64,000 bases of DNA from a virus (lineage: Duplodnaviria; Heunggongvirae; Uroviricota; Caudoviricetes). The stretch lies in the IMG/VR virus record IMGVR_UViG_2939521961_000018; one strand, 5' to 3'. Below are positions 2,860 to 13,765 of the stretch, one piece after another. How positions within the stretch are numbered: position 1 is the first letter of the stretch; each line of letters begins with the position of its first letter. Position numbers and translations under genes: made by a program. The notes beneath the pieces are model-generated. The model did not search any database, had not been told where the DNA came from, and worked only from the letters and a program-made list of their open reading frames with translations.

Positions 2860-3162
2860 ATGAGCAGAAAAACCCAACGTTACTCTAAAGAGTTCAAAGC
2901 CGAAGCTGTCAGAACGGTTCTTGAAAATCAACTTTCGATCAGTGAAGGCGCTTCCCGATTATCTCTTCCTGAAGGCACTTTAGGACAATGGGTTACCGCC
3001 GCCAGAAAAGGGCTCGGTACTCCTGGTTCCCGCACGGTGGCTGAACTGGAATCTGAAATTCTGCAACTGCGTAAGGCGTTAAATGAAGCTCGCCTTGAGC
3101 GAGATATATTAAAAAAAGCAACAGCGTATTTTGCACAGGAGTCGCTGAAAAATACGCGTTAA
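2860..3162 (+). CDS. IS600 OrfA (HTH, leucine-zipper transposase N-terminal part)
   Basis: MSRKTQRYSKEFKAEAVRTVLEN typical IS3-family OrfA. Confidence 0.9.
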   Translation: MSRKTQRYSKEFKAEAVRTVLENQLSISEGASRLSLPEGTLGQWVTAARKGLGTPGSRTVAELESEILQLRKALNEARLERDILKKATAYFAQESLKNTR

Positions 3163-3197
3163 TCGAACAATGGCGACAACAATTTCCCATTGAAGCG

Positions 3198-4016
3198 ATG
3201 TGTCAGGTATTTGGTGTATCCAGGAGCGGTTATTACAACTGGGTACAGCATGAACCCTCAGACAGAAAACAAAGTGATGAGCGGCTAAAACTGGAGATTA
3301 AGGTGGCACATATCCGCACTCGCGAAACATATGGAACCCGGCGGCTCCAGACGGAGCTGGCAGAGAATGGCATCATCGTTGGTCGTGACCGACTGGCACG
3401 TCTTCGTAAGGAGCTAAGGCTACGCTGTAAGCAGAAACGCAAGTTCAGAGCGACTACGAACTCGAACCACAATCTGCCAGTTGCGCCAAATCTGCTGAAC
3501 CAGACGTTCGCTCCTACAGCACCAAATCAGGTCTGGGTGGCGGACCTGACGTATGTTGCCACACAGGAGGGATGGTTGTACCTCGCTGGCATCAAAGATG
3601 TTTATACGTGCGAAATTGTCGGCTACGCCATGGGAGAGCGCATGACAAAAGAGCTGACAGGTAAAGCTCTGTTTATGGCGCTCAGGAGCCAGCGCCCACC
3701 TGCCGGGCTAATCCACCACTCTGATCGAGGTTCACAGTACTGCGCATACGATTACCGGGTCATACAGGAGCAGTTTGGTCTGAAAACATCAATGTCGCGT
3801 AAAGGTAACTGTTACGACAACGCTCCGATGGAAAGCTTCTGGGGAACGCTGAAAAATGAGAGCCTGAGCCACTATCGTTTTAATAACCGGGATGAAGCCA
3901 TCTCAGTAATACGGGAATACATTGAGATTTTCTACAATCGTCAGCGTCGTCACTCTCGTCTGGGGAATATCTCCCCGGCAGCCTTCAGGGAAAAATATCA
4001 TCAGATGGCTGCTTAA
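3198..4016 (+). CDS. IS600 OrfB (DDE transposase catalytic part; made as OrfAB fusion by -1 frameshift)
   Basis: DDE integrase core (HSDRGSQY, CYDNAPMESFWGTLK); -1 frame relative to orfA. Confidence 0.9.
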   Translation: MCQVFGVSRSGYYNWVQHEPSDRKQSDERLKLEIKVAHIRTRETYGTRRLQTELAENGIIVGRDRLARLRKELRLRCKQKRKFRATTNSNHNLPVAPNLLNQTFAPTAPNQVWVADLTYVATQEGWLYLAGIKDVYTCEIVGYAMGERMTKELTGKALFMALRSQRPPAGLIHHSDRGSQYCAYDYRVIQEQFGLKTSMSRKGNCYDNAPMESFWGTLKNESLSHYRFNNRDEAISVIREYIEIFYNRQRRHSRLGNISPAAFREKYHQMAA

Positions 4017-4194
4017 AAAAAGAACAAATGGTAGTGTCCGCTATTGCCAGTACACCTCAGAGATCACCCAATATCCCCATCGGGATCGGGTAATAACTGG
4101 CCAGACTGTGATCAATTCAGATGCCATTTGGCAGTAAAAGGGTCTTCGGGCAATAAACGTGATGCACAACCCGGCATATCTGTTGATCCCTGAA

Positions 4195-4228
4195 AGTAAA
4201 AGGCCCCGGTCATAATGACCGGGGCCTG
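4195..4228 (-). terminator. Rho-independent terminator downstream of Ag43 gene
   Basis: GC hairpin GGCCCCGGTC-ataat-GACCGGGGCC followed by a short T-run on the minus strand, 20 nt after the stop. Confidence 0.5.
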
Positions 4229-4247
4229 AAGGGAAGTGACCTGATTA

Positions 4248-7094
4248 TCAGAAAGTCACGTTCAGTGTGGCCTGACCGTTATAACCTTCAGCGCTGCTGC
4301 CGCTGACACTGTGGGCATAACCGGCCTGAACGCCCAGGGTGATATTTTCCCGGACACGGGCTTCCAGTCCGGCCTGCAGGTCCAGTGACGTGCCATTCCG
4401 GGACGGTGAGAACGTCATGTTACTGCCGGCTGCGGCTGTACCCATGCTCATGTCTCCCCGGGAGCTGAAGGTGCGGATAACAGAAGGCTGTACCCACCAG
4501 TTCACCGGCAATTCACGCACACTGTGTTTGGCACTGTCGCGCAGGGTGTCACGGGATGAGGTGCCTTTACCAAAGTTCATATCGTTGTGGCTGCCCAGAC
4601 GGAAGCCGGCACGCACATGTTGTGCACTGCCATGCCCGAACTTCACATAACCGGCGTTATCCTGGCCGTCATCCAGGGAGAGTCCCTGCCAGGTGTACTG
4701 CAGTTGTGGCTCCAGCATCAGATTGTCAGTGATACTGAAGGGCAGACCGGTTTCCAGTGAGCCCAGCCAGCCCCAGCCCCGGGCGCGGAAGTCGTTATTG
4801 TCCGATGATGCTTTCATGCTGTGGCGGGTTCCCTGTGCCACAATGTCAGCCCACAGGCCGGAGGATGTGTGTACCAGATTCAGGTATCCGCCCAGACTGC
4901 CGGCATCATCCCGGACCGTGCCGGCGCGGGAGCCGTCATCATCCTTAACATCAACGGAAGAATGGCCTGCAGCACCATACACCCCTGTCGTCAGAGACAT
5001 ACCGGCAACCTCTGTTCTGAGCAGGTCACCCTCCAGACGGACGAAGCCATAGCTGCCGCTGCTTTCCGGCGTGGCCCCACGGGCAATACCGCCGTTGTTA
5101 TCGTGCCCGAGATGACCGCCCTGAATGCTGAGACGGACGCTGTTATTTTCACCGTTTACACCGGTCTGATGGCTGCGGGAGCCAGCCAGAATCCGGTCAT
5201 AGTCCATTGCCTGTGTCAGCATGGAGGCATACAGGGGGACTTCAGCACGATAAGCATTTTCACTGCGCAGGTACCAGTCTTCATCGCTGTCACGGTTCAG
5301 GGTGTAGTTAAAGGCGCCGGCCTGAAGCGGGCGGCTCAGGGCAAACGCACCTTCTTCTGTGGTGGCACCATTCTGTGCATCCACAACCCGGATACCCTGT
5401 CCGGTGGTTGCCACCCCGAGGTTACTGTTTCCGACATTTGTGAACGCAAGCCAGGTTTTGCCGGTTGCCTGACCACCATTAATCACCAGCTGGTCTGAGG
5501 TATTACTGCCATCAAGGCGAACACGCATATTGATGGTGCCGCCCTGACCAGTGAGGTTGGTGGTGGTCAGTTTATGGAACGTTACCGGGGAGTCGCCTTT
5601 TGCAACAGCACGGCTCAGCACGGCATCCTGTGTCGTCTGATTATCAAAGTGAATCTCTCCTGCGTTAACAATATCGCCGGTACTGACCACATCACCATTC
5701 AGTACCATACTGGCGCCTTTACTGAGCTGTGTTCTGCCACTCAGACTTCCCCCGGCAGCCAGCGTCAGTGTTCCACGATGTCCGACAGTGGTGTTGCCTG
5801 CCTGTCCCCCGGCATTAACCGTAAAGCTGCCGCCATTTTCCAGTAGCAGGCCGCTGGCCTGACCGGATATGCCATCAATACTGAACTTACCGCTGGCATT
5901 GGTCCCCTCAACAGTGGCACCACTGTCTGCTATCAGGGCACCACCGGATGTCATGGTGACATCTGTTGCCTTACCACCGGCAGACACTGCCAGGGTACCG
6001 CCGTCATCCACCCGTGTTTTCTGCGCTGAATGGCCTTCCAGTACATCCAGGCGACCGCCGGACTCCAGAACAACGCCGTCAGCCTTACCGTTTTCCACCG
6101 TGAAATTGCCCAGACGGTTGCTGCCAAGAACCGTTGCCGCAGTACTGGTGACCAGTGCTCCACCCTGTTTCAGGGTGACATGTGTGGCGGTACCACCGGC
6201 GTTCACCTGCAGTTTGCCTTTCTGGTTAACGGTGGTGAAATCCGCCAGACCACCTTCCTTGATAATCTGCCAGCCGTCACTGTTTACAACAGTGCCAGAC
6301 GCCGTACCGCCGTTGTGCACATACTGGTACCCCCCATTCAGCGTGGTATCCAGTGCGTGACCATGTACAGTCTGGTCGCCGCCGGCATAAACCACAGTGG
6401 TATTTGCCGTTCCTTCAGCAGCCACAATCTGACGACCATTTTTATTGATGGTGGTGCGTACGGCATCTCCGTAGACGTTCTGCCCGGTATCACCATTTTC
6501 TGCATCCGGTCCCCCTTCCGCGCCGGTATTCACAACCGTGTCGGTTGCCATTGCGCCGGATTTGACGGCCTGCCAGCCCTTCTCATTAATGACGGTAACC
6601 GTTGCAATCCCGCCTTCATGTACCCACTGCTCACCGCCGTTCAGAGTGGTGTTCACTGCCTGCCCCTGAAGGCTCTGTCCGCCTCCGGCACTGATAACCG
6701 TGTCTGAAACGCTTCCTCCGGCATTCACTCTCTGAAGACCACCACCGGTGACAGTAGTGTTGTTGGCGATACCGCCATTTTGTATCCATTGTCCGCCGGT
6801 ATTGGCCTCGTTATCCGGCCCATACTCCAGACCGGTACTGATGGTCATTCCGTTGGCCGTACCGAAGACAATCTGGTTGTCATGATTTGTCAGTGTTCCG
6901 CCGTTCACGGTTTCTCCCGCCTGTACAACCGTGTCAGCAGCCAGTGCCGGGACTGATGTGACAGCAGCAAGAGACAGCGCAACCGCCACACCGGCGCGTT
7001 TTCCCCGTGAGCGGGCCAGTTCGGAGGCCACCACCAGGGTGCCCGTAATGTGATTCCATACCAGCCTGTAGCTGGTGTTCAGATGTCGTTTCAT
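4248..7094 (-). CDS. flu: Antigen 43-type self-associating autotransporter adhesin
   Basis: Extended signal peptide MKRHLNTSYRLVWNHITGTLVVASELARS, long Gly/Thr/Asn-rich beta-helix repeats, C-terminal beta-barrel ending in F; ORF-track start moved 25 codons in to the MKRH ATG, which has an AAGGA RBS. Confidence 0.85.
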   Translation of the reverse strand: MKRHLNTSYRLVWNHITGTLVVASELARSRGKRAGVAVALSLAAVTSVPALAADTVVQAGETVNGGTLTNHDNQIVFGTANGMTISTGLEYGPDNEANTGGQWIQNGGIANNTTVTGGGLQRVNAGGSVSDTVISAGGGQSLQGQAVNTTLNGGEQWVHEGGIATVTVINEKGWQAVKSGAMATDTVVNTGAEGGPDAENGDTGQNVYGDAVRTTINKNGRQIVAAEGTANTTVVYAGGDQTVHGHALDTTLNGGYQYVHNGGTASGTVVNSDGWQIIKEGGLADFTTVNQKGKLQVNAGGTATHVTLKQGGALVTSTAATVLGSNRLGNFTVENGKADGVVLESGGRLDVLEGHSAQKTRVDDGGTLAVSAGGKATDVTMTSGGALIADSGATVEGTNASGKFSIDGISGQASGLLLENGGSFTVNAGGQAGNTTVGHRGTLTLAAGGSLSGRTQLSKGASMVLNGDVVSTGDIVNAGEIHFDNQTTQDAVLSRAVAKGDSPVTFHKLTTTNLTGQGGTINMRVRLDGSNTSDQLVINGGQATGKTWLAFTNVGNSNLGVATTGQGIRVVDAQNGATTEEGAFALSRPLQAGAFNYTLNRDSDEDWYLRSENAYRAEVPLYASMLTQAMDYDRILAGSRSHQTGVNGENNSVRLSIQGGHLGHDNNGGIARGATPESSGSYGFVRLEGDLLRTEVAGMSLTTGVYGAAGHSSVDVKDDDGSRAGTVRDDAGSLGGYLNLVHTSSGLWADIVAQGTRHSMKASSDNNDFRARGWGWLGSLETGLPFSITDNLMLEPQLQYTWQGLSLDDGQDNAGYVKFGHGSAQHVRAGFRLGSHNDMNFGKGTSSRDTLRDSAKHSVRELPVNWWVQPSVIRTFSSRGDMSMGTAAAGSNMTFSPSRNGTSLDLQAGLEARVRENITLGVQAGYAHSVSGSSAEGYNGQATLNVTF

Positions 7095-7304
7095 CAGCTT
7101 TTCCTTACAGAGGGTGAATAAAAAAGCCGGTACCCACAAAAGTGGATACCGGCAGGTACAAAACAGCATGGTCAGATAAAGTGGTTTTTCCCGGACATAA
7201 ATGTTTCCCCTCTCTCATCCGCCAGAGAAGTATCAGTCCGTTGTGTGCAATTCCGTTCTGCATGATGAAGAGATTCAGCTGCCTTTTCGCAGACCATTAA
7301 CCAC

Positions 7305-7350
7305 TATAAACGATCGATAGTAACGATCGATACCTGTTTTATCGATCGTT
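7305..7350. promoter_or_regulatory. agn43 phase-variation switch: three Dam GATC sites within the OxyR binding region
   Basis: GATC at about 7312, 7325 and 7344 in AAACGATCGATAGTAACGATCGATACCTGTTTTATCGATCG, 150-200 bp upstream of the flu start. Confidence 0.7.
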
Positions 7351-7462
7351 TTATTCTATTAACAGCAGGGAAGTCACGCAAGAGAAAGAGGTGGGTATGA
7401 GGGGGGGGCATGTTTTCAGTTGGTTAACGCAATGTAATCAGGCATTTCCCCTGGCAGAGTGT

Positions 7463-8335
7463 TCAGAAGAAAATCCAGTTCCATACCGCGCGGGCAACAG
7501 AGACCACCGAGTCACGGACGGCCCGCAGAACCGTGCGTGCAACAGAGGCAATACAGACGCTCTCCGCCGTGTCAAATATCCGGTCCACCGCACCGGTAAA
7601 CTGTTCACGGGCCTGACCCCGGACAGATTCCGTGCGCAGCTCGTCCTGCAGGCGGGTCATCAGGGGACTGGCGGCATGGTCGGGAAGCGCTGTCATGAGC
7701 GCACTGACCAGCGTATCCAGTTCCCAGCCGGTGCGGGCCGATACGGCCACAACCGGATGTACGGGCCGGAACAGACGGAATACCGCCTCCGTTTTTTCGC
7801 GAATATTCTGTGCCTGTGCGGGAGAAGGCTGAATACCGGCCATATCCCATTCATGGCAGGGCTCCGTTTTGTCGGCCTGCGTCACCACAAACAGCACCTG
7901 CTGATGTCCCCGGTGCAGGATGTGTCGCCAGAAATACTCATCCACAGACAGGGCGCGGTCATCGGCTTTAATCAGCCACAGCACCAGGTCCAGTTCGGGC
8001 AGAATGTCACGGTACAGGGCTTCATACTCTGCATCCCTGTCCCGGCTCTCGCCCACCCCGGGCAGGTCAGTGATAACCATGCTGTGACCGTGGCCACTCA
8101 GACGGAAGCGCCGCACTTCCCGGGTGCCGGCGTGAACATCACTGACCGGGGTGACCTCCCCCTGAAACAGTGCATTACAGAGTGAGGATTTACCGGCTCC
8201 GCTTTTACCCATAATGCCAATCACGGGTTCGTGACTGGTGAGTTTGCGCAGATGTTCCAGGATGTGACGGGAAAGTGAGTAAGGCAGGGAGGAGAGCGGT
8301 TTTTCAATTGCCTCAATGGCATCAGACGGATTCAT
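7463..8335 (-). CDS. yeeP: YeeP/YfjP-family GTPase (Era-like)
   Basis: G1 motif GKSGAGKSSL, G3 DLPG; start moved to MNPSDAIEAIEK; immediately upstream of flu as in CP4-44. Confidence 0.75.
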   Translation of the reverse strand: MNPSDAIEAIEKPLSSLPYSLSRHILEHLRKLTSHEPVIGIMGKSGAGKSSLCNALFQGEVTPVSDVHAGTREVRRFRLSGHGHSMVITDLPGVGESRDRDAEYEALYRDILPELDLVLWLIKADDRALSVDEYFWRHILHRGHQQVLFVVTQADKTEPCHEWDMAGIQPSPAQAQNIREKTEAVFRLFRPVHPVVAVSARTGWELDTLVSALMTALPDHAASPLMTRLQDELRTESVRGQAREQFTGAVDRIFDTAESVCIASVARTVLRAVRDSVVSVARAVWNWIFF

Positions 8336-8666
8336 ACATGTATTCCCGGTGAAAAAAGACAAAACCCCGCGCACCGGAAAGGTGGCGGGGGATTCACAAC
8401 GATAATATCTGTCTGAAATTATTTGGAATGCAGGTATATGTGGCTGATTTGTATCAGCTAATGAGTACAGGTCTGAATCTAATCTGACAGTCCGCTCTGT
8501 GCCAGAAGCGGGCGTTAGGTTGAGTAAAGAAAAGCCCATAAAATTCCCTGCGTTTGATAAACCCGGATATGAAAAATTATTACTTTCAGAGTATGATTAT
8601 CTTGCTTAAATTAACCTATATACGAAACCTCACTTTTTCGATTCATAAGAGGAATTAAAGAAAAAC

Positions 8667-9665
8667 ATGGATATGATACCTTCATATGAAAGCATGTATT
8701 TGACTTTAAGAGGGATACCAACTGACTCAATTGGAGGTGAGGACATTTACTTTATACATGATCCTCAAGGTGGATGGTACCCGAACAGAGGGAATCATCT
8801 TTATGCGATCGATGCATTATGCGTTAATATTCATGATGCTCTAGCTAATAGCATTTTTGATGGATTAGAAAACTACCACAAGTTCCTTTATATGGCCCCT
8901 GAGTTTTTATCAACAGCAGGTTTGAACTCTGAATCCGTAGTTTCAAAAGAAACATTTGTTTTATTTATTGATAAATTCAAAGGGCATACTGACGTAAATA
9001 AAGGCCTTTACCTTTTTGATTGCTGTAAAATTGTAAGTAGCATACAGGAATGCAGCAAGGAAGTGTTGCAACTACAAGGGGAGTTTTATTACACGTTGAA
9101 TTTTGAACCCTTGTTTTTCCCTAACATTGAAGAGGAGGACGGTATAAGATATGTTACATCTCCAGTCGTGACTAAGCTCTTTGCATTACTTGGATTTATT
9201 TATATCCGCATGTACAGTTTGCTCGACTACATAACAAAACTAGCTATAGAAATTGAAAATTTAAAAACACAGTTCTCTTCTTATGTTAAACTCACATCCA
9301 AGAACTCTCAATATGGTGATAAAAAGAAAGTGAGCTTAAATAATTATAAAGGATCTTTGTTTGAGCAATGCCCATTTATTAATGAAATAGAAAGTGTACG
9401 AAACCATATCATACATGATGGTCTTTTAGACGATATGCCAAAAGCATACAGAGTTATCCGGAACAACGCATGTATTGAAAAATATTTGCTTTTCCCTGAC
9501 CAAACATCAGAAGGACGTTTTGAATCGTATAAAAGTAGAAATTTATTTTATGGTGGTGATACCAAAATAAATAATCGACTCCCAGAGATTACCAATCAAT
9601 TTCAAGAGCGACTTTTGCTTACTTTGGGTAAAATATTTGATAAATTAAATGAAAAACAGAGTTAG
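8667..9665 (+). CDS. Hypothetical protein with HEPN-like Rx4H motif (candidate Abi-type effector)
   Basis: 332-aa AT-rich ORF; motif ESVRNHIIHDG; opposite strand to the island backbone. Confidence 0.5.
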   Translation: MDMIPSYESMYLTLRGIPTDSIGGEDIYFIHDPQGGWYPNRGNHLYAIDALCVNIHDALANSIFDGLENYHKFLYMAPEFLSTAGLNSESVVSKETFVLFIDKFKGHTDVNKGLYLFDCCKIVSSIQECSKEVLQLQGEFYYTLNFEPLFFPNIEEEDGIRYVTSPVVTKLFALLGFIYIRMYSLLDYITKLAIEIENLKTQFSSYVKLTSKNSQYGDKKKVSLNNYKGSLFEQCPFINEIESVRNHIIHDGLLDDMPKAYRVIRNNACIEKYLLFPDQTSEGRFESYKSRNLFYGGDTKINNRLPEITNQFQERLLLTLGKIFDKLNEKQS

Positions 9666-9801
9666 TTAATAGTTTTTAAAGTAATTACAATGGGTTGTAG
9701 GTTGTTTAGTTGAAGTTTAAAAGCAGCGCTTTAGCAGTTGATTGCGTTAAACCATTGTAATATACAAAGGGGAAATAGTATTTAGCCGTGGGGGAGTATT
9801 A

Positions 9802-10656
9802 ATGAATACAAATATCGGTATGAGATATATAGACGTAGTGGCAAATGGTAATGCCGGAGAGTTTTATTTTGCATACTGGATATCAAGTAATTTCATCTGG
9901 CCTTGCCGTATTCTTGATATTGATATGGGGTTAGATGCTCAAGTTGAAGTTTATGATGACCAAAATCATTCAACTGGAATGTTTATTGGTGTGCAGGTGA
10001 AAACAACCGCGACTACGCTAGAAGAAAACCCTAATGTTTCTGTACCCATGAAAAATATAGCTTATTGGGAAAGCATAAATGATCCAGTTGTTATTATTCG
10101 GACCTGTCTTAATAACAATTCAAAAGAGCCTAGCTTGTACTGGAAGCATCTTCCGAAAAGTGAATTAAGAAAATATTTAAATAGAGCCGAGGAAAAAGGT
10201 TATGAAACAGTAACCATAATGTTCGAGGAGGATAAGAACTCATTGCTGAAAACCGATAAGTCAGCATGGCTAAAGATATTTTTGAGCGATTATGATAAGG
10301 AAATCATTGAAAGTGTAGTAGGGATTAAAAGTAAACTAGATAAGTTAGGTAAATACTTAAAAGATAATTATATTGATGAGCAGTTTATTTGTGGGTTTCC
10401 AAGTGACGATTTCCCATCAGAACTGAACGATACTTTGAATAAATATGATGAATTAGCAGTTGCTGTTAAAGTAAACCCTCGACTAAAATATCTTTCGAAT
10501 GAAGTAAAATCAACTATTGATTCTTACAATTCATATATTAACCTTATACTGCTCTTTTTCAAAGAGGGATGGAGCACTGGGTCGATTAGAAATTCCGATT
10601 TTGATATTTCATCGACAATTAACCCTGCACTTCACAAAATTATCAATAGTTATTAA
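9802..10656 (+). CDS. Hypothetical protein, N-terminal restriction-endonuclease-like region (possibly DUF4365)
   Basis: 284-aa AT-rich ORF; N-terminal GNAGEFYFAYW...ILDIDMGLDAQVEV...GVQVK resembles a PD-(D/E)xK-type core; assignment from memory and uncertain. Confidence 0.5.
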   Translation: MNTNIGMRYIDVVANGNAGEFYFAYWISSNFIWPCRILDIDMGLDAQVEVYDDQNHSTGMFIGVQVKTTATTLEENPNVSVPMKNIAYWESINDPVVIIRTCLNNNSKEPSLYWKHLPKSELRKYLNRAEEKGYETVTIMFEEDKNSLLKTDKSAWLKIFLSDYDKEIIESVVGIKSKLDKLGKYLKDNYIDEQFICGFPSDDFPSELNDTLNKYDELAVAVKVNPRLKYLSNEVKSTIDSYNSYINLILLFFKEGWSTGSIRNSDFDISSTINPALHKIINSY

Positions 10657-10956: not shown

Positions 10957-11451
10957 TCAGGGGGCAGTAGGCTCAAGCCAGGCGGTTACGTCACCGGCAC
11001 CGTTGATGAAGTCGAAAAGGATGATCAACTGCTCCACCGCGTAACAGGCATGGTCTAACTCACGCTCAAATGTGCGAATAAGTGCAGCTCCGTCTAAAAG
11101 CTGCTGTGTGACCGCAAAATTAGCAAGGAACTCGTGAGCCATCGTATTGCGCTGATCTTTGAATGACTTCAGGTAAGCATTATAGTCCGTGCGCAGCCCC
11201 AGCTTTTTAAGCTCAACGCGGGTCTGGCCTAATGTCAGCCTCTCTAATTTTTCTTCATCAAGGTTGTATCCCGGAAAAGAAACAAGAATTTTTTTTAGGC
11301 CAAACTCTAGCAACTGTGCCTTGCCCATAAACAGACCGAACCGTTCGATGAAGGGTTTACCCTCGTATATTTTGAGCCCAGCAAAAATCTTATCCCGAAG
11401 TTCCTGGCCACCCAGCGTATCAATATCCATGCGCGTTTCCTTTTTAGACAT
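10957..11451 (-). CDS. Hypothetical protein with Rx4H motif (possible HEPN-type)
   Basis: 164-aa ORF; motif DQRNTMAHEF; a palindrome follows the stop. Confidence 0.45.
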   Translation of the reverse strand: MSKKETRMDIDTLGGQELRDKIFAGLKIYEGKPFIERFGLFMGKAQLLEFGLKKILVSFPGYNLDEEKLERLTLGQTRVELKKLGLRTDYNAYLKSFKDQRNTMAHEFLANFAVTQQLLDGAALIRTFERELDHACYAVEQLIILFDFINGAGDVTAWLEPTAP

Positions 11452-12210: not shown

Positions 12211-13029
12211 ATGGAAATTCATGTTCCCATGGAAATGGTAGTAAGTGATGGAGAAGAAAGATTCACAGAGCTTGATTTTTACTATGGGTCAAAAGCACTT
12301 GAAGGCACGTCAGAGATAGTTACAGTCCTCACTAATACGATTCTAAATCGCGAAGTAGTTACTAAAATCCCATCAATCGAAGGCATAACCGCATCTTTTC
12401 GTACCAGTTATGAAGGGTCGTTTAGACAACGTTTCATGCTCAAGATCACAGGTGAGGAACAACGTAGAAACTATGGCGCAATCGGAGAGGGGGCATTTCT
12501 AGATGTTATGTCTTATTATCTTACAAGACCATTATTAACACCTTATAATTTCACATATAAAAGGGCTGCTAGAATTGTTAAAGAACTTGAGTCAGATTAT
12601 AGTTCATTAATGAAGAGGCTTTATGGCCCACTATTGAAGCTTCATAAGCCCATAGAAGAACAAAATTATACTGTTGAGCTGAAACGGAGAAGGACAAATC
12701 TTGCTCGGTATGATCACACGACCCTTGAAAATCTAATTGTTGAACGTGCCGATGATGAAAGGATCATTATTGAAGCTTCTATTACAAGATTTAATCGGCT
12801 AACGGGGACGGGAAGGCTCATTCTTGAGGAAGATTCTGAGTCTGTAAGTTTTGAACCTTCATATCTTTGGAGAGATTTTCCAGCAGATCAAAAACGCTGG
12901 CTATCTAGAAACTTAGACGTCAACACAGATAATGGTGATTTTACTCGTGTACGGCTAGAGGTGACATCAATCAGAAACTTTCTTGGTGTCATTAAAAAAT
13001 ATAGTCTTCACCGAGTTATAACGGATTGA
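12211..13029 (+). CDS. Hypothetical cytoplasmic protein, first gene of a coupled pair
   Basis: 272-aa ORF; stop is 1 nt before the start of the next gene. Confidence 0.5.
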   Translation: MEIHVPMEMVVSDGEERFTELDFYYGSKALEGTSEIVTVLTNTILNREVVTKIPSIEGITASFRTSYEGSFRQRFMLKITGEEQRRNYGAIGEGAFLDVMSYYLTRPLLTPYNFTYKRAARIVKELESDYSSLMKRLYGPLLKLHKPIEEQNYTVELKRRRTNLARYDHTTLENLIVERADDERIIIEASITRFNRLTGTGRLILEEDSESVSFEPSYLWRDFPADQKRWLSRNLDVNTDNGDFTRVRLEVTSIRNFLGVIKKYSLHRVITD

Positions 13030-13030
13030 T

Positions 13031-13765
13031 ATGATAAAGTATGTTGCCTTTTTAGTTATATCAGTTACATGGTTGATTTATTTCTTCAATTTCGATCCGT
13101 TAAATGGTTTTCCAATTGATAAGTCTGAATGGGGAACATTTGGTGATTTCGTTGGCGGCGTAACCAACCCCATTTTGACATTTTTTACAATGATTATGTT
13201 AATTAAATCAATAAACTTACAAAAAGAGGCTAACATCAGCATTATTAAACAAAATTTGCACATGCATGAGGTTTCAGAAAGACAAAAAGAAATTGATGAC
13301 TTGCGCTCTTTTGAATCATCGTTTTATAGCCTCGCTGAAGTATCTAGAAGAGAGTTTGATGCCCTCAGAATAACTGGTAGAAATAAAAAAAACTACTCAG
13401 CCTCAGATGCGGTAACCTATTTAGAGAGTTACATGATAAACTCATGTAAGTCAAAAAATGCAGAAGAATTATGCAAACAATTTTCTATTTTTGATAATGA
13501 ATCCTCTATGGCTCTCTTTTCTGCGGTTCGTAGTTTTTATATTCTATTTAAATTCACAAATGAATCTTGCCCAGAAAACCACAAAGAAAGATATTACGAA
13601 ATAGCAAATTATACTATGCCTGTGAAATTTCTTCATTTGGTATGTTTGGCATACGTATTTAGTGATTGGAAAATAATAAAAGACTTTGAAAGTTTCGGTT
13701 TTTTCAATCGCAAAGGATTAGATAAATACATCATGGATTTTATGGATGTAAAGAACTTTTATTAG
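13031..13765 (+). CDS. Membrane protein, 2 N-terminal TM helices; resembles AbiC-like putative abortive-infection proteins
   Basis: TM1 YVAFLVISVTWLIYFF, then WGTFGDFVGGVTNPILTFFTMIMLIKSINLQK (TM2); AT-rich; family resemblance from memory. Confidence 0.5.
   Translation: MIKYVAFLVISVTWLIYFFNFDPLNGFPIDKSEWGTFGDFVGGVTNPILTFFTMIMLIKSINLQKEANISIIKQNLHMHEVSERQKEIDDLRSFESSFYSLAEVSRREFDALRITGRNKKNYSASDAVTYLESYMINSCKSKNAEELCKQFSIFDNESSMALFSAVRSFYILFKFTNESCPENHKERYYEIANYTMPVKFLHLVCLAYVFSDWKIIKDFESFGFFNRKGLDKYIMDFMDVKNFY

Follow-up and report, generated by a model that had tools for sequence, protein, structure and literature searches.

Two adjacent genes, here called ORF1 and ORF2, encode a probable HEPN-type RNase and a DUF4365 nuclease, respectively, in a stretch of DNA of 64,000 nucleotides (IMG/VR virus record IMGVR_UViG_2939521961_000018, Caudoviricetes; hereafter the window). 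We favour, with a probability of roughly 55%, the reading that they are separate, self-contained single-gene candidate modules of immunity against phages or other mobile genetic elements (MGEs), lying side by side by chance in the AT-rich cargo of a CP4-44-type island. What carries this reading was computed in this analysis, namely the reality of both genes, their domain and fold assignments, the conservation of their motifs, the lack of linkage between them and the MGE and defence-island contexts of their homologues.

The window matches genomes of the Escherichia coli O26:H11 type. That both ORFs are real genes is shown by their RefSeq annotation, a defined distribution in E. coli and conserved homologues in many taxa. 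In NC_013361.1 the two are cargo of a CP4-44-type island inserted beside csc/dsdA genes, the island content including a YeeU-family antitoxin, antirestriction genes, Ag43 and a GTPase. The guanine-plus-cytosine (GC) content is 0.339 for ORF1 and 0.336 for ORF2, compared with 0.561 in the flank at 4248-8539 (the Ag43/yeeP-like segment). In a preliminary description of this DNA, made from the sequence alone, the coordinates, lengths, shared direction and AT-richness of the two genes had been given, together with their orientation on the strand opposite to the yeeP-side backbone, and all of these proved exact on re-computation. The main features are as follows.

8491..8666, plus strand: region upstream of ORF1; left edge of the low-GC cargo and of the segment common with E. 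coli LR9-2
8667..9665, plus strand: ORF1, 332 residues, RefSeq WP_000367246.1 (hypothetical protein in NC_013361.1); member of a large uncharacterised family of proteins of about 330 residues, probable HEPN-type RNase
9666..9801, plus strand: spacer between ORF1 and ORF2, 136 bp
9802..10656, plus strand: ORF2, 284 residues, RefSeq WP_001095351.1 (DUF4365 domain-containing protein in NC_013361.1); DREN-type PD-(D/E)xK nuclease with a helical C-terminal domain

Distribution of ORF1 and ORF2

The two genes had been proposed to form a cassette. Sequence comparisons do not support ORF1 and ORF2 as a conserved two-gene system; they were instead found separately in unrelated contexts, with no intact ORF2 at any of 37 ORF1 loci and no ORF1 in any of eight ORF2 contexts. 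At the 31 species-representative loci of ORF1 homologues nothing ORF2-like was present within the fetched DNA, and the flanking genes were almost never shared. A tblastn tally over all fetched loci gave 37 with ORF1 (the 31 representatives and the closest ORF1 relatives), nine with intact ORF2 and none with both; just two of the 37 hold ORF2 remnants, of 30 residues. Within E. coli, ORF1 is present in 84 of 5426 complete genomes and the intact pair in 82, all with at least 99% identity, and these near-identical copies appear to represent essentially one lineage event.

The closest relatives of ORF1 are found without ORF2. In Pectobacterium brasiliense (79% identity) the gene stands alone in a type IV secretion system/integrative and conjugative element region after ccdAB, near ArdC and BrxC/TerB-like genes. 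A relative from gut metagenomes (81%; loci L040-L043) is preceded by a co-directional gene for an FRG-domain (PF08867) protein, at 4855-5745 (3721-4611 in L043). This relative is the closest one outside E. coli, and it and the FRG-domain gene are inserted together between genes for glutathione peroxidase and a DeoR regulator.

In E. coli LR9-2 (NZ_CM188245.1; locus L046, 6822-8319) ORF1 is intact, whereas only the first 91 bp of ORF2 are left, followed by an 80-bp scrap, in inverted orientation, of a third ORF of the block. The nucleotide identity to positions 8491-9892 of the window is 89.9% (blastn), and 92.4% over ORF1 alone. Here ORF1 lies directly after HigA, an AbiJ-related gene and Hachiman HamA/helicase, near a tRNA-Thr gene, with an unrelated 452-residue hypothetical gene beyond the scrap. 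Judged from these alignments, the LR9-2 locus derives from the same block by decay, with ORF1 as the sole survivor. The third ORF would once have travelled with ORF1 and ORF2, since it is the remnant of its 3′ end that adjoins the ORF2 remnant. The same arrangement was seen on a contig of a metagenome-assembled genome labelled ‘uncultured Clostridiales’ (L002; ORF1 91% identical at the amino acid level), which is probably mis-binned enterobacterial sequence, given that its ORF1 block is near-identical.

Intact ORF2 homologues occupy eight distinct contexts. On chromosomes and in prophages these are two Serratia sites, a P2-like prophage (between the genes for the tail-fibre chaperone and the sheath), the end of a Xenorhabdus prophage and a filamentous prophage of Providencia; the P2 site is presumably the classical Z/fun moron site. 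The remainder are phage-plasmid-like replicons with recA/gp32/dnaE, including 17 E. coli plasmids, and the leading region of a conjugative plasmid, beside ArdA and a DNA methyltransferase. In Providencia, a co-directional ORF of 294 residues (L036:4917-5801) that carries an Rx4H string (IRNRYVH) lies upstream of the DUF4365 homologue. It was considered as a hidden analogue of ORF1 and rejected, as BLASTP against ORF1 was not significant and it has no Pfam match.

Domains and motifs of the two proteins

ORF1 is a member of a family of 238 proteins at E ≤0.001 in a search of sequences clustered at 90%, and of 344 clusters at 50% identity in an exhaustive profile search. Nearly all are 310-360 residues long and the architecture is uniform. 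The family extends through the Gamma-, Beta- and Alphaproteobacteria, Planctomycetota, Nitrospirota, Chloroflexota and others. The AlphaFold2 (AF2) model of ORF1 has a predicted local distance difference test score of 94.4 and a predicted template modelling score of 0.92, and its parts and predicted active-site residues are listed here.

8667..8987, plus strand: N-terminal region, about residues 1-107; short strands and helices in the AF2 model
8988..9659, plus strand: HEPN-like helical core, about residues 108-331; long helices 108-146, 166-197, 236-251 and 301-331, insert 198-235 and beta-hairpin 260-273 in the AF2 model
9225..9239, plus strand: D187-x3-K191 in helix 166-197, the helix-2 acidic-x3-[KR] element of the predicted active site, with D rather than E
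9399..9416, plus strand: R245-N-H-I-I-H250, the Rx4H motif, at the C-terminal end of helix 236-251

The RNHIIH string on which the HEPN assignment had been based is present at residues 245-250 and is the sole Rx4H in the protein. The Rx4H by itself is weak evidence because a single one arises by chance in 21% of composition-matched shuffles of ORF1 (R[NDH]x3H in 3%); its meaning comes from its invariance across homologues. R245 and H250 are invariant in alignments of 37, 119 and 102 sequences, and close members share N246 at a level of at least 90%. Across the 102 homologues, some with as little as about 20% identity, invariance is limited to D187, R245, H250, R291 and F294, while K191, E195, G85, D118, P277, D278 and N302 are at least 90% conserved. 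Published criteria for HEPN domains are a polar residue (N, D or H) after the arginine and a conserved acidic residue in helix 2, typically E-x3-[KR], near the Rx4-6H (PMC3710099). ORF1 agrees with them in sequence and in position along the helices, in that RNx3H closes the third core helix and D187-x3-K191 lies in helix 2 with an insert between the two, the helices being those of the predicted structure.

Profile and structure searches were less informative. PF18730 (HEPN_Cthe2314) matches ORF1 with 17.4 bits (E 0.0047), short of its gathering threshold of 27.1, and the best consensus of the family scores 22.9 bits. No other Pfam family recurs, and this one is matched by 8 of 119 close and 12 of 102 distant members, with a best E of 4.6e-6. 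A member from Microvirga already bears the label ‘Cthe-2314-like HEPN domain-containing protein’ in one source. A Foldseek search of the PDB gave no match for ORF1 and profile searches of the PDB only weak matches to HAUS and IpaD, nothing meaningful, such that the structure searches do not discriminate as to HEPN. The earlier HEPN assignment thus stands as far as the motif is concerned, which is invariant, at the right position in its helix and paired with an invariant acidic-x3-K, while the PF18730 matches are sub-threshold and the structural comparison does not decide. On the basis of the alignments and the model, ORF1 is a probable RNase of the HEPN superfamily, related to PF18730 but not a member by the Pfam criterion.

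ORF1 also matches phrog_31026, a phage-protein family of unknown function (E 2.5e-43). NCBIfam has no family for ORF1 or ORF2, and no PADLOC v2 model matches members of the ORF1 family, save for the methyltransferase half of one fusion. This fusion, in a distant member (alignment A4; P0282 or P0294), is to an N6 DNA methyltransferase (N6_Mtase/Eco57I; PADLOC type I/II methyltransferase models) and hints at a link between the HEPN-like family and restriction-modification. The N-terminal region of ORF1 has no match in Pfam, NCBIfam or PADLOC and may be a sensor or regulatory part. At residue 284 (positions 9516-9518 of the window) ORF1 has Arg where the cluster representative P0001 has Cys (SEGRFESY and SEGCFESY, respectively); more than 90% of family members share the adjoining G283.

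The second protein had been suggested, from its N-terminus, to have a restriction-endonuclease-like fold, possibly DUF4365. This was borne out by a Pfam match above the curated threshold, a PD-(D/E)xK fold and an invariant DxGxD...QxK motif. Its parts are the following.

9856..10230, plus strand: DUF4365 nuclease domain, residues 19-143; PF14280 at 50.3 bits against a cut-off of 24.3 (E 3.3e-13)
9922..10002, plus strand: catalytic motif D41-x-G43-x-D45 ... Q65-x-K67
10279..10653, plus strand: C-terminal helical domain, about residues 160-284, resembling a three-helix bundle

The close family of ORF2 is narrow, consisting of Enterobacterales and a few metagenomic sequences with 30-79% identity, and all 26 members match PF14280 (best E 5.5e-18). 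The invariant residues include E20, D39, D41, G43, D45, Q47, E49 and K67, with Q65 at least 90% conserved. The top structural matches of the nuclease domain are I-Ssp6803I and Hjc, indicating a resolvase-like PD-(D/E)xK fold; the PDB profile search returned only a weak match to a DUF4365 chain, 9qbq (E 0.23). Equivalent motif residues are needed for the toxicity in E. coli of EAT16, a DUF4365 protein of Photorhabdus (PMC11297309), and in NbaSPARDA mutation of D41, Q60 or K62 abolishes or impairs nuclease activity (PMC12205087). Q62 and K64 are the predicted active site of TmuRE, of which the Q62A/K64A double mutant was intended as the inactive control (PMC10810196). The C-terminal domain of ORF2 is a candidate sensor or oligomerisation module.

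Putative functions and alternative explanations

The neighbours of the ORF1 homologues are rich in AAA_15/AAA_21 ATPases (some with DUF4435) and phage integrases, and others include HATPase_c_3, a STAND-like NTPase, SLOG, an SDH-type protease, DUF3732, DUF7380 with DUF4209 and prophage structural genes. At three alphaproteobacterial loci an ORF1 homologue lies downstream of, or near, a set of four genes encoding a KAP-NTPase, an unknown protein, a QueC-like protein and TatD (2961-7945 in both L017 and L020, 3662-5811 in L013); in L017 and L020 the ORF1 homologue begins where the TatD gene ends. We take this set to have the architecture of the Qat defence system. By guilt-by-association these neighbours, along with the AbiJ-related and Hachiman genes of LR9-2 and, for ORF2, the prophage and plasmid sites of its homologues, support a defence role, in a qualitative way.

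For both proteins we infer a defence function, with the triggers, substrates and oligomeric activation proposed here. ORF1 would be inactive in uninfected cells, the C-terminal two-thirds forming a HEPN-type four-helix bundle, and either the family-specific N-terminal part or the inserts would sense an infection cue; the hairpin and the invariant R291 and F294 may also serve regulation or trigger sensing. Two HEPN domains would then form a composite Rx4H active site (D187/K191 and R245/H250), probably by dimerisation as in other HEPN enzymes, which would cut RNA without a metal cofactor, leading to a halt in translation and abortive infection. In SPARDA the isolated DREN domain is monomeric and inactive until tetramerised (PMC12205087). 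By analogy, the nuclease domain of ORF2 would be off as a monomer, and sensing of an invader by the C-terminal domain would lead to oligomerisation and non-specific degradation of DNA. There are precedents for single-gene systems with such domains: Divona (DUF4365 with crr6) and Esos (HEPN-like only) are found in Vibrio integron cassettes (10.1101/2024.07.02.601686), and DefensePredictor yielded the single protein DS-11 (CBS with HEPN), with 13 new PD-(D/E)xK and four HEPN systems validated in E. coli.

Several results weigh against two independent defence genes. A tblastn search of 50,697 deposited phage genomes with both proteins gave no match (although ORF1 does match phrog_31026), and neither protein matches a PADLOC v2 system model, apart from the nuclease domain of ORF2, which alone matches the model for the restriction endonuclease associated with prokaryotic Argonautes (pAgo; positions 25-113 of 429). 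The HEPN assignment, at 17.4 to 22.9 bits, never reaches the curated cut-off. Finally, the genes of the O26 lineage are 136 bp apart with no predicted terminator, and they may be co-transcribed, making lineage-specific cooperation possible. Promoter and terminator scans of the region gave scores no better than those of shuffles, with nothing promoter-like or terminator-like called in 9666..9801, and a weak sigma-70-like site at 8569-8597 upstream of ORF1 (9/12) is likewise no better than the shuffle expectation. A literature search with the two RefSeq accessions returned no papers.

That last genomic point is the starting point for the possibility that ORF1 and ORF2 act together in this lineage as a two-component system, such as a HEPN sensor/RNase cooperating with, or licensing, a DREN DNase. 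In addition to their common direction, the arrangement is kept at an identity of at least 99% in the 82 E. coli genomes, and the LR9-2 remnant shows ORF1 to have travelled as one block with the spacer and the beginning of ORF2; the Providencia DUF4365 homologue is also preceded by the unrelated 294-residue ORF with its RNx3H string. However, the 82 copies amount to roughly one evolutionary event, and the Providencia ORF has neither a Pfam match nor significant similarity to ORF1. The absence of the intact pair from all other loci compared, the persistence of an intact ORF1 after the destruction of ORF2, and the presence in the spacer of a Shine-Dalgarno sequence belonging to ORF2 itself (GGGGGAG, 6-12 nt upstream of the ATG) make such a system quite unlikely. 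A composite reading, in which the nucleases are coupled into a dual RNase/DNase system in the O26-type lineage while the ORF1 family is independently a widespread, unnamed single-protein HEPN sensor-effector with a new N-terminal sensing part, is distinctly improbable. The LR9-2 locus bears equally on a toxin-antitoxin or addiction module, in which one nuclease would be the toxin, neutralised by its neighbour, and the island would be stabilised: loss of ORF2 would have been lethal were it the antitoxin of ORF1, yet ORF1 is retained. HEPN proteins are frequent toxins of such modules (PMC3710099), expression of a DUF4365 protein can poison E. coli, as with EAT16 (PMC11297309), and the adjoining CP4-44-type backbone has the YeeU-family antitoxin gene. 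Many genomes nevertheless carry just one of the two families, there was no sign of a small conserved partner gene and the catalytic motifs are intact in both proteins, which is unexpected for an antitoxin, and we give this explanation hardly any credence.

Other alternatives concern the activity of the proteins. ORF2 could be an enzyme of direct restriction rather than an effector of abortive infection. By analogy with the Mrr-like type IV enzymes it would recognise and cut DNA that is foreign or modified, the C-terminal helices serving to recognise the target. DUF4365 has been described as part of an Mrr-subfamily nuclease (10.1101/2024.07.02.601686), I-Ssp6803I and Hjc cut DNA by sequence or structure, and ORF2 homologues lie in a plasmid leading region beside antirestriction and methyltransferase genes. 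We regard this as unlikely, as the characterised DUF4365/DREN enzymes are non-specific once activated (PMC10810196, PMC12205087), and the C-terminal domain has no recognisable DNA-binding fold and the gene no consistently adjacent cognate methyltransferase. A role outside defence for one or both genes, either as an exported or injected antibacterial toxin or as a selfish factor for MGE maintenance, is very unlikely. Both families travel on MGEs, and EAT16 (DUF4365 with DUF1817) is a predicted cargo toxin of an extracellular contractile injection system (eCIS) that kills E. coli when expressed (PMC11297309). The resemblance of ORF2 to EAT16 is confined, however, to 35 aligned residues over the catalytic motif, DUF1817 is lacking, there is no adjacent eCIS, type VI secretion system or immunity gene, and Pfam gave no signal peptide or secretion-associated domain. 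Two single-gene defence candidates brought together by chance remain the reading we prefer.

Surrounding genes and comparison with known systems

The low-GC block extends to about 14000 and contains four further ORFs. These and other features of the surrounding DNA are listed below.

4248..7169, minus strand: Ag43 gene, left neighbour
7463..8539, minus strand: yeeP-like GTPase gene, left neighbour
10957..11451, minus strand: third ORF, 164 residues, convergent with ORF2; contains an RNx3H string (QRNTMAHEF)
12211..13029 and 13031..13765, plus strand: pair of ORFs of 272 and 244 residues, with adjacent stop and start codons
20086..22446, plus strand: uninterrupted ORF of 786 residues

The third ORF has no Pfam, NCBIfam, PADLOC, PHROG or PDB match, and its candidacy as a HEPN relative of ORF1 was not supported by hhalign against the ORF1 family or by the PDB search. 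The 272- and 244-residue pair matches phage-protein families of unknown function (phrog_13337, E 5e-62, and phrog_8999, E 2e-39, respectively) and looks more like a genuine two-gene module than ORF1 and ORF2. The 272-residue ORF also gives faint DUF7946/DUF7947 signals, and the 244-residue ORF has N-terminal hydrophobic segments. In the corresponding part of the island in O26:H11 str. 11368 there is an IS3 insertion flanked by an ‘HsdR N-terminal domain’ gene and a 1710-bp hypothetical gene. If the 786-residue ORF of the window corresponds to these two genes, the window would derive from a related strain without the IS3 insertion.

ORF1 and ORF2 are thus uncharacterised, ordinary-looking single-gene nuclease candidates for defence against phages and MGEs. 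If confirmed experimentally, ORF1 would add a widespread and compact HEPN family to the catalogue of single-gene abortive infection, and ORF2 would be another case in which a DREN nuclease works without an Argonaute system, coupled to a sensing module of a different kind. Both bear on the recombination of effector domains with sensors in bacterial immunity, and both, being carried by Shiga-toxin-producing E. coli of O26, O103 and O111, are candidate contributors to the phage-resistance profile there. For experiments the ORF1 family is the better choice of the two, being widespread, highly conserved and outside the 2023 PADLOC models. The locus also teaches that adjacency within one clonal lineage is no proof of an operon-level system.

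Like the HEPN proteins of PF18730, AbiJ, AbiD/F, AbiV, Esos and DS-11, ORF1 is a stand-alone protein with RNx3H, an acidic-x3-K element and an insert, and is found in defence islands and on MGEs. The family member fused to a DNA methyltransferase recalls the link between HEPN domains and restriction-modification (PMC3710099). Compared with a minimal HEPN domain, ORF1 is about twice the size, with a family-specific N-terminus, a beta-hairpin after the motif and the extra invariant residues R291 and F294, and it differs from other HEPN proteins in having no AbiJ_NTD, CBS, MNT or other known partner domain.

ORF2 has the same Pfam domain as SPARDA (DREN-APAZ with a short pAgo), the same DxGxD...QxK motif and the same I-Ssp6803I/Hjc-like PD-(D/E)xK fold. 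By analogy, it probably shares the non-specific DNase chemistry of SPARDA and possibly its activation by oligomerisation. Unlike SPARDA, it lacks APAZ, and the nuclease is fused to a helical bundle of about 125 residues instead; Pfam gave no Argonaute/PIWI domain for any of the six ORFs that make up the AT-rich block, nor does the RefSeq annotation show one nearby. Since there is neither APAZ nor an Argonaute gene, the trigger of ORF2 cannot be guide-dependent target recognition. With EAT16, 35 residues of ORF2 align (E 2e-4), and the motif D42/D46/Q66/K68 lies at nearly the same positions as D41/D45/Q65/K67 of ORF2; the C-terminal domain differs, DUF1817 is missing and there are no eCIS genes nearby. 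Divona is likewise set apart by its described architecture, as crr6 (PF08847) gave no match in ORF2 or 25 relatives at E values up to 1. It is nonetheless a single protein like ORF2, with an N-terminal DUF4365 and an unrelated C-terminal domain, and Divona homologues have been reported in E. coli near integrases on MGEs (10.1101/2024.07.02.601686).

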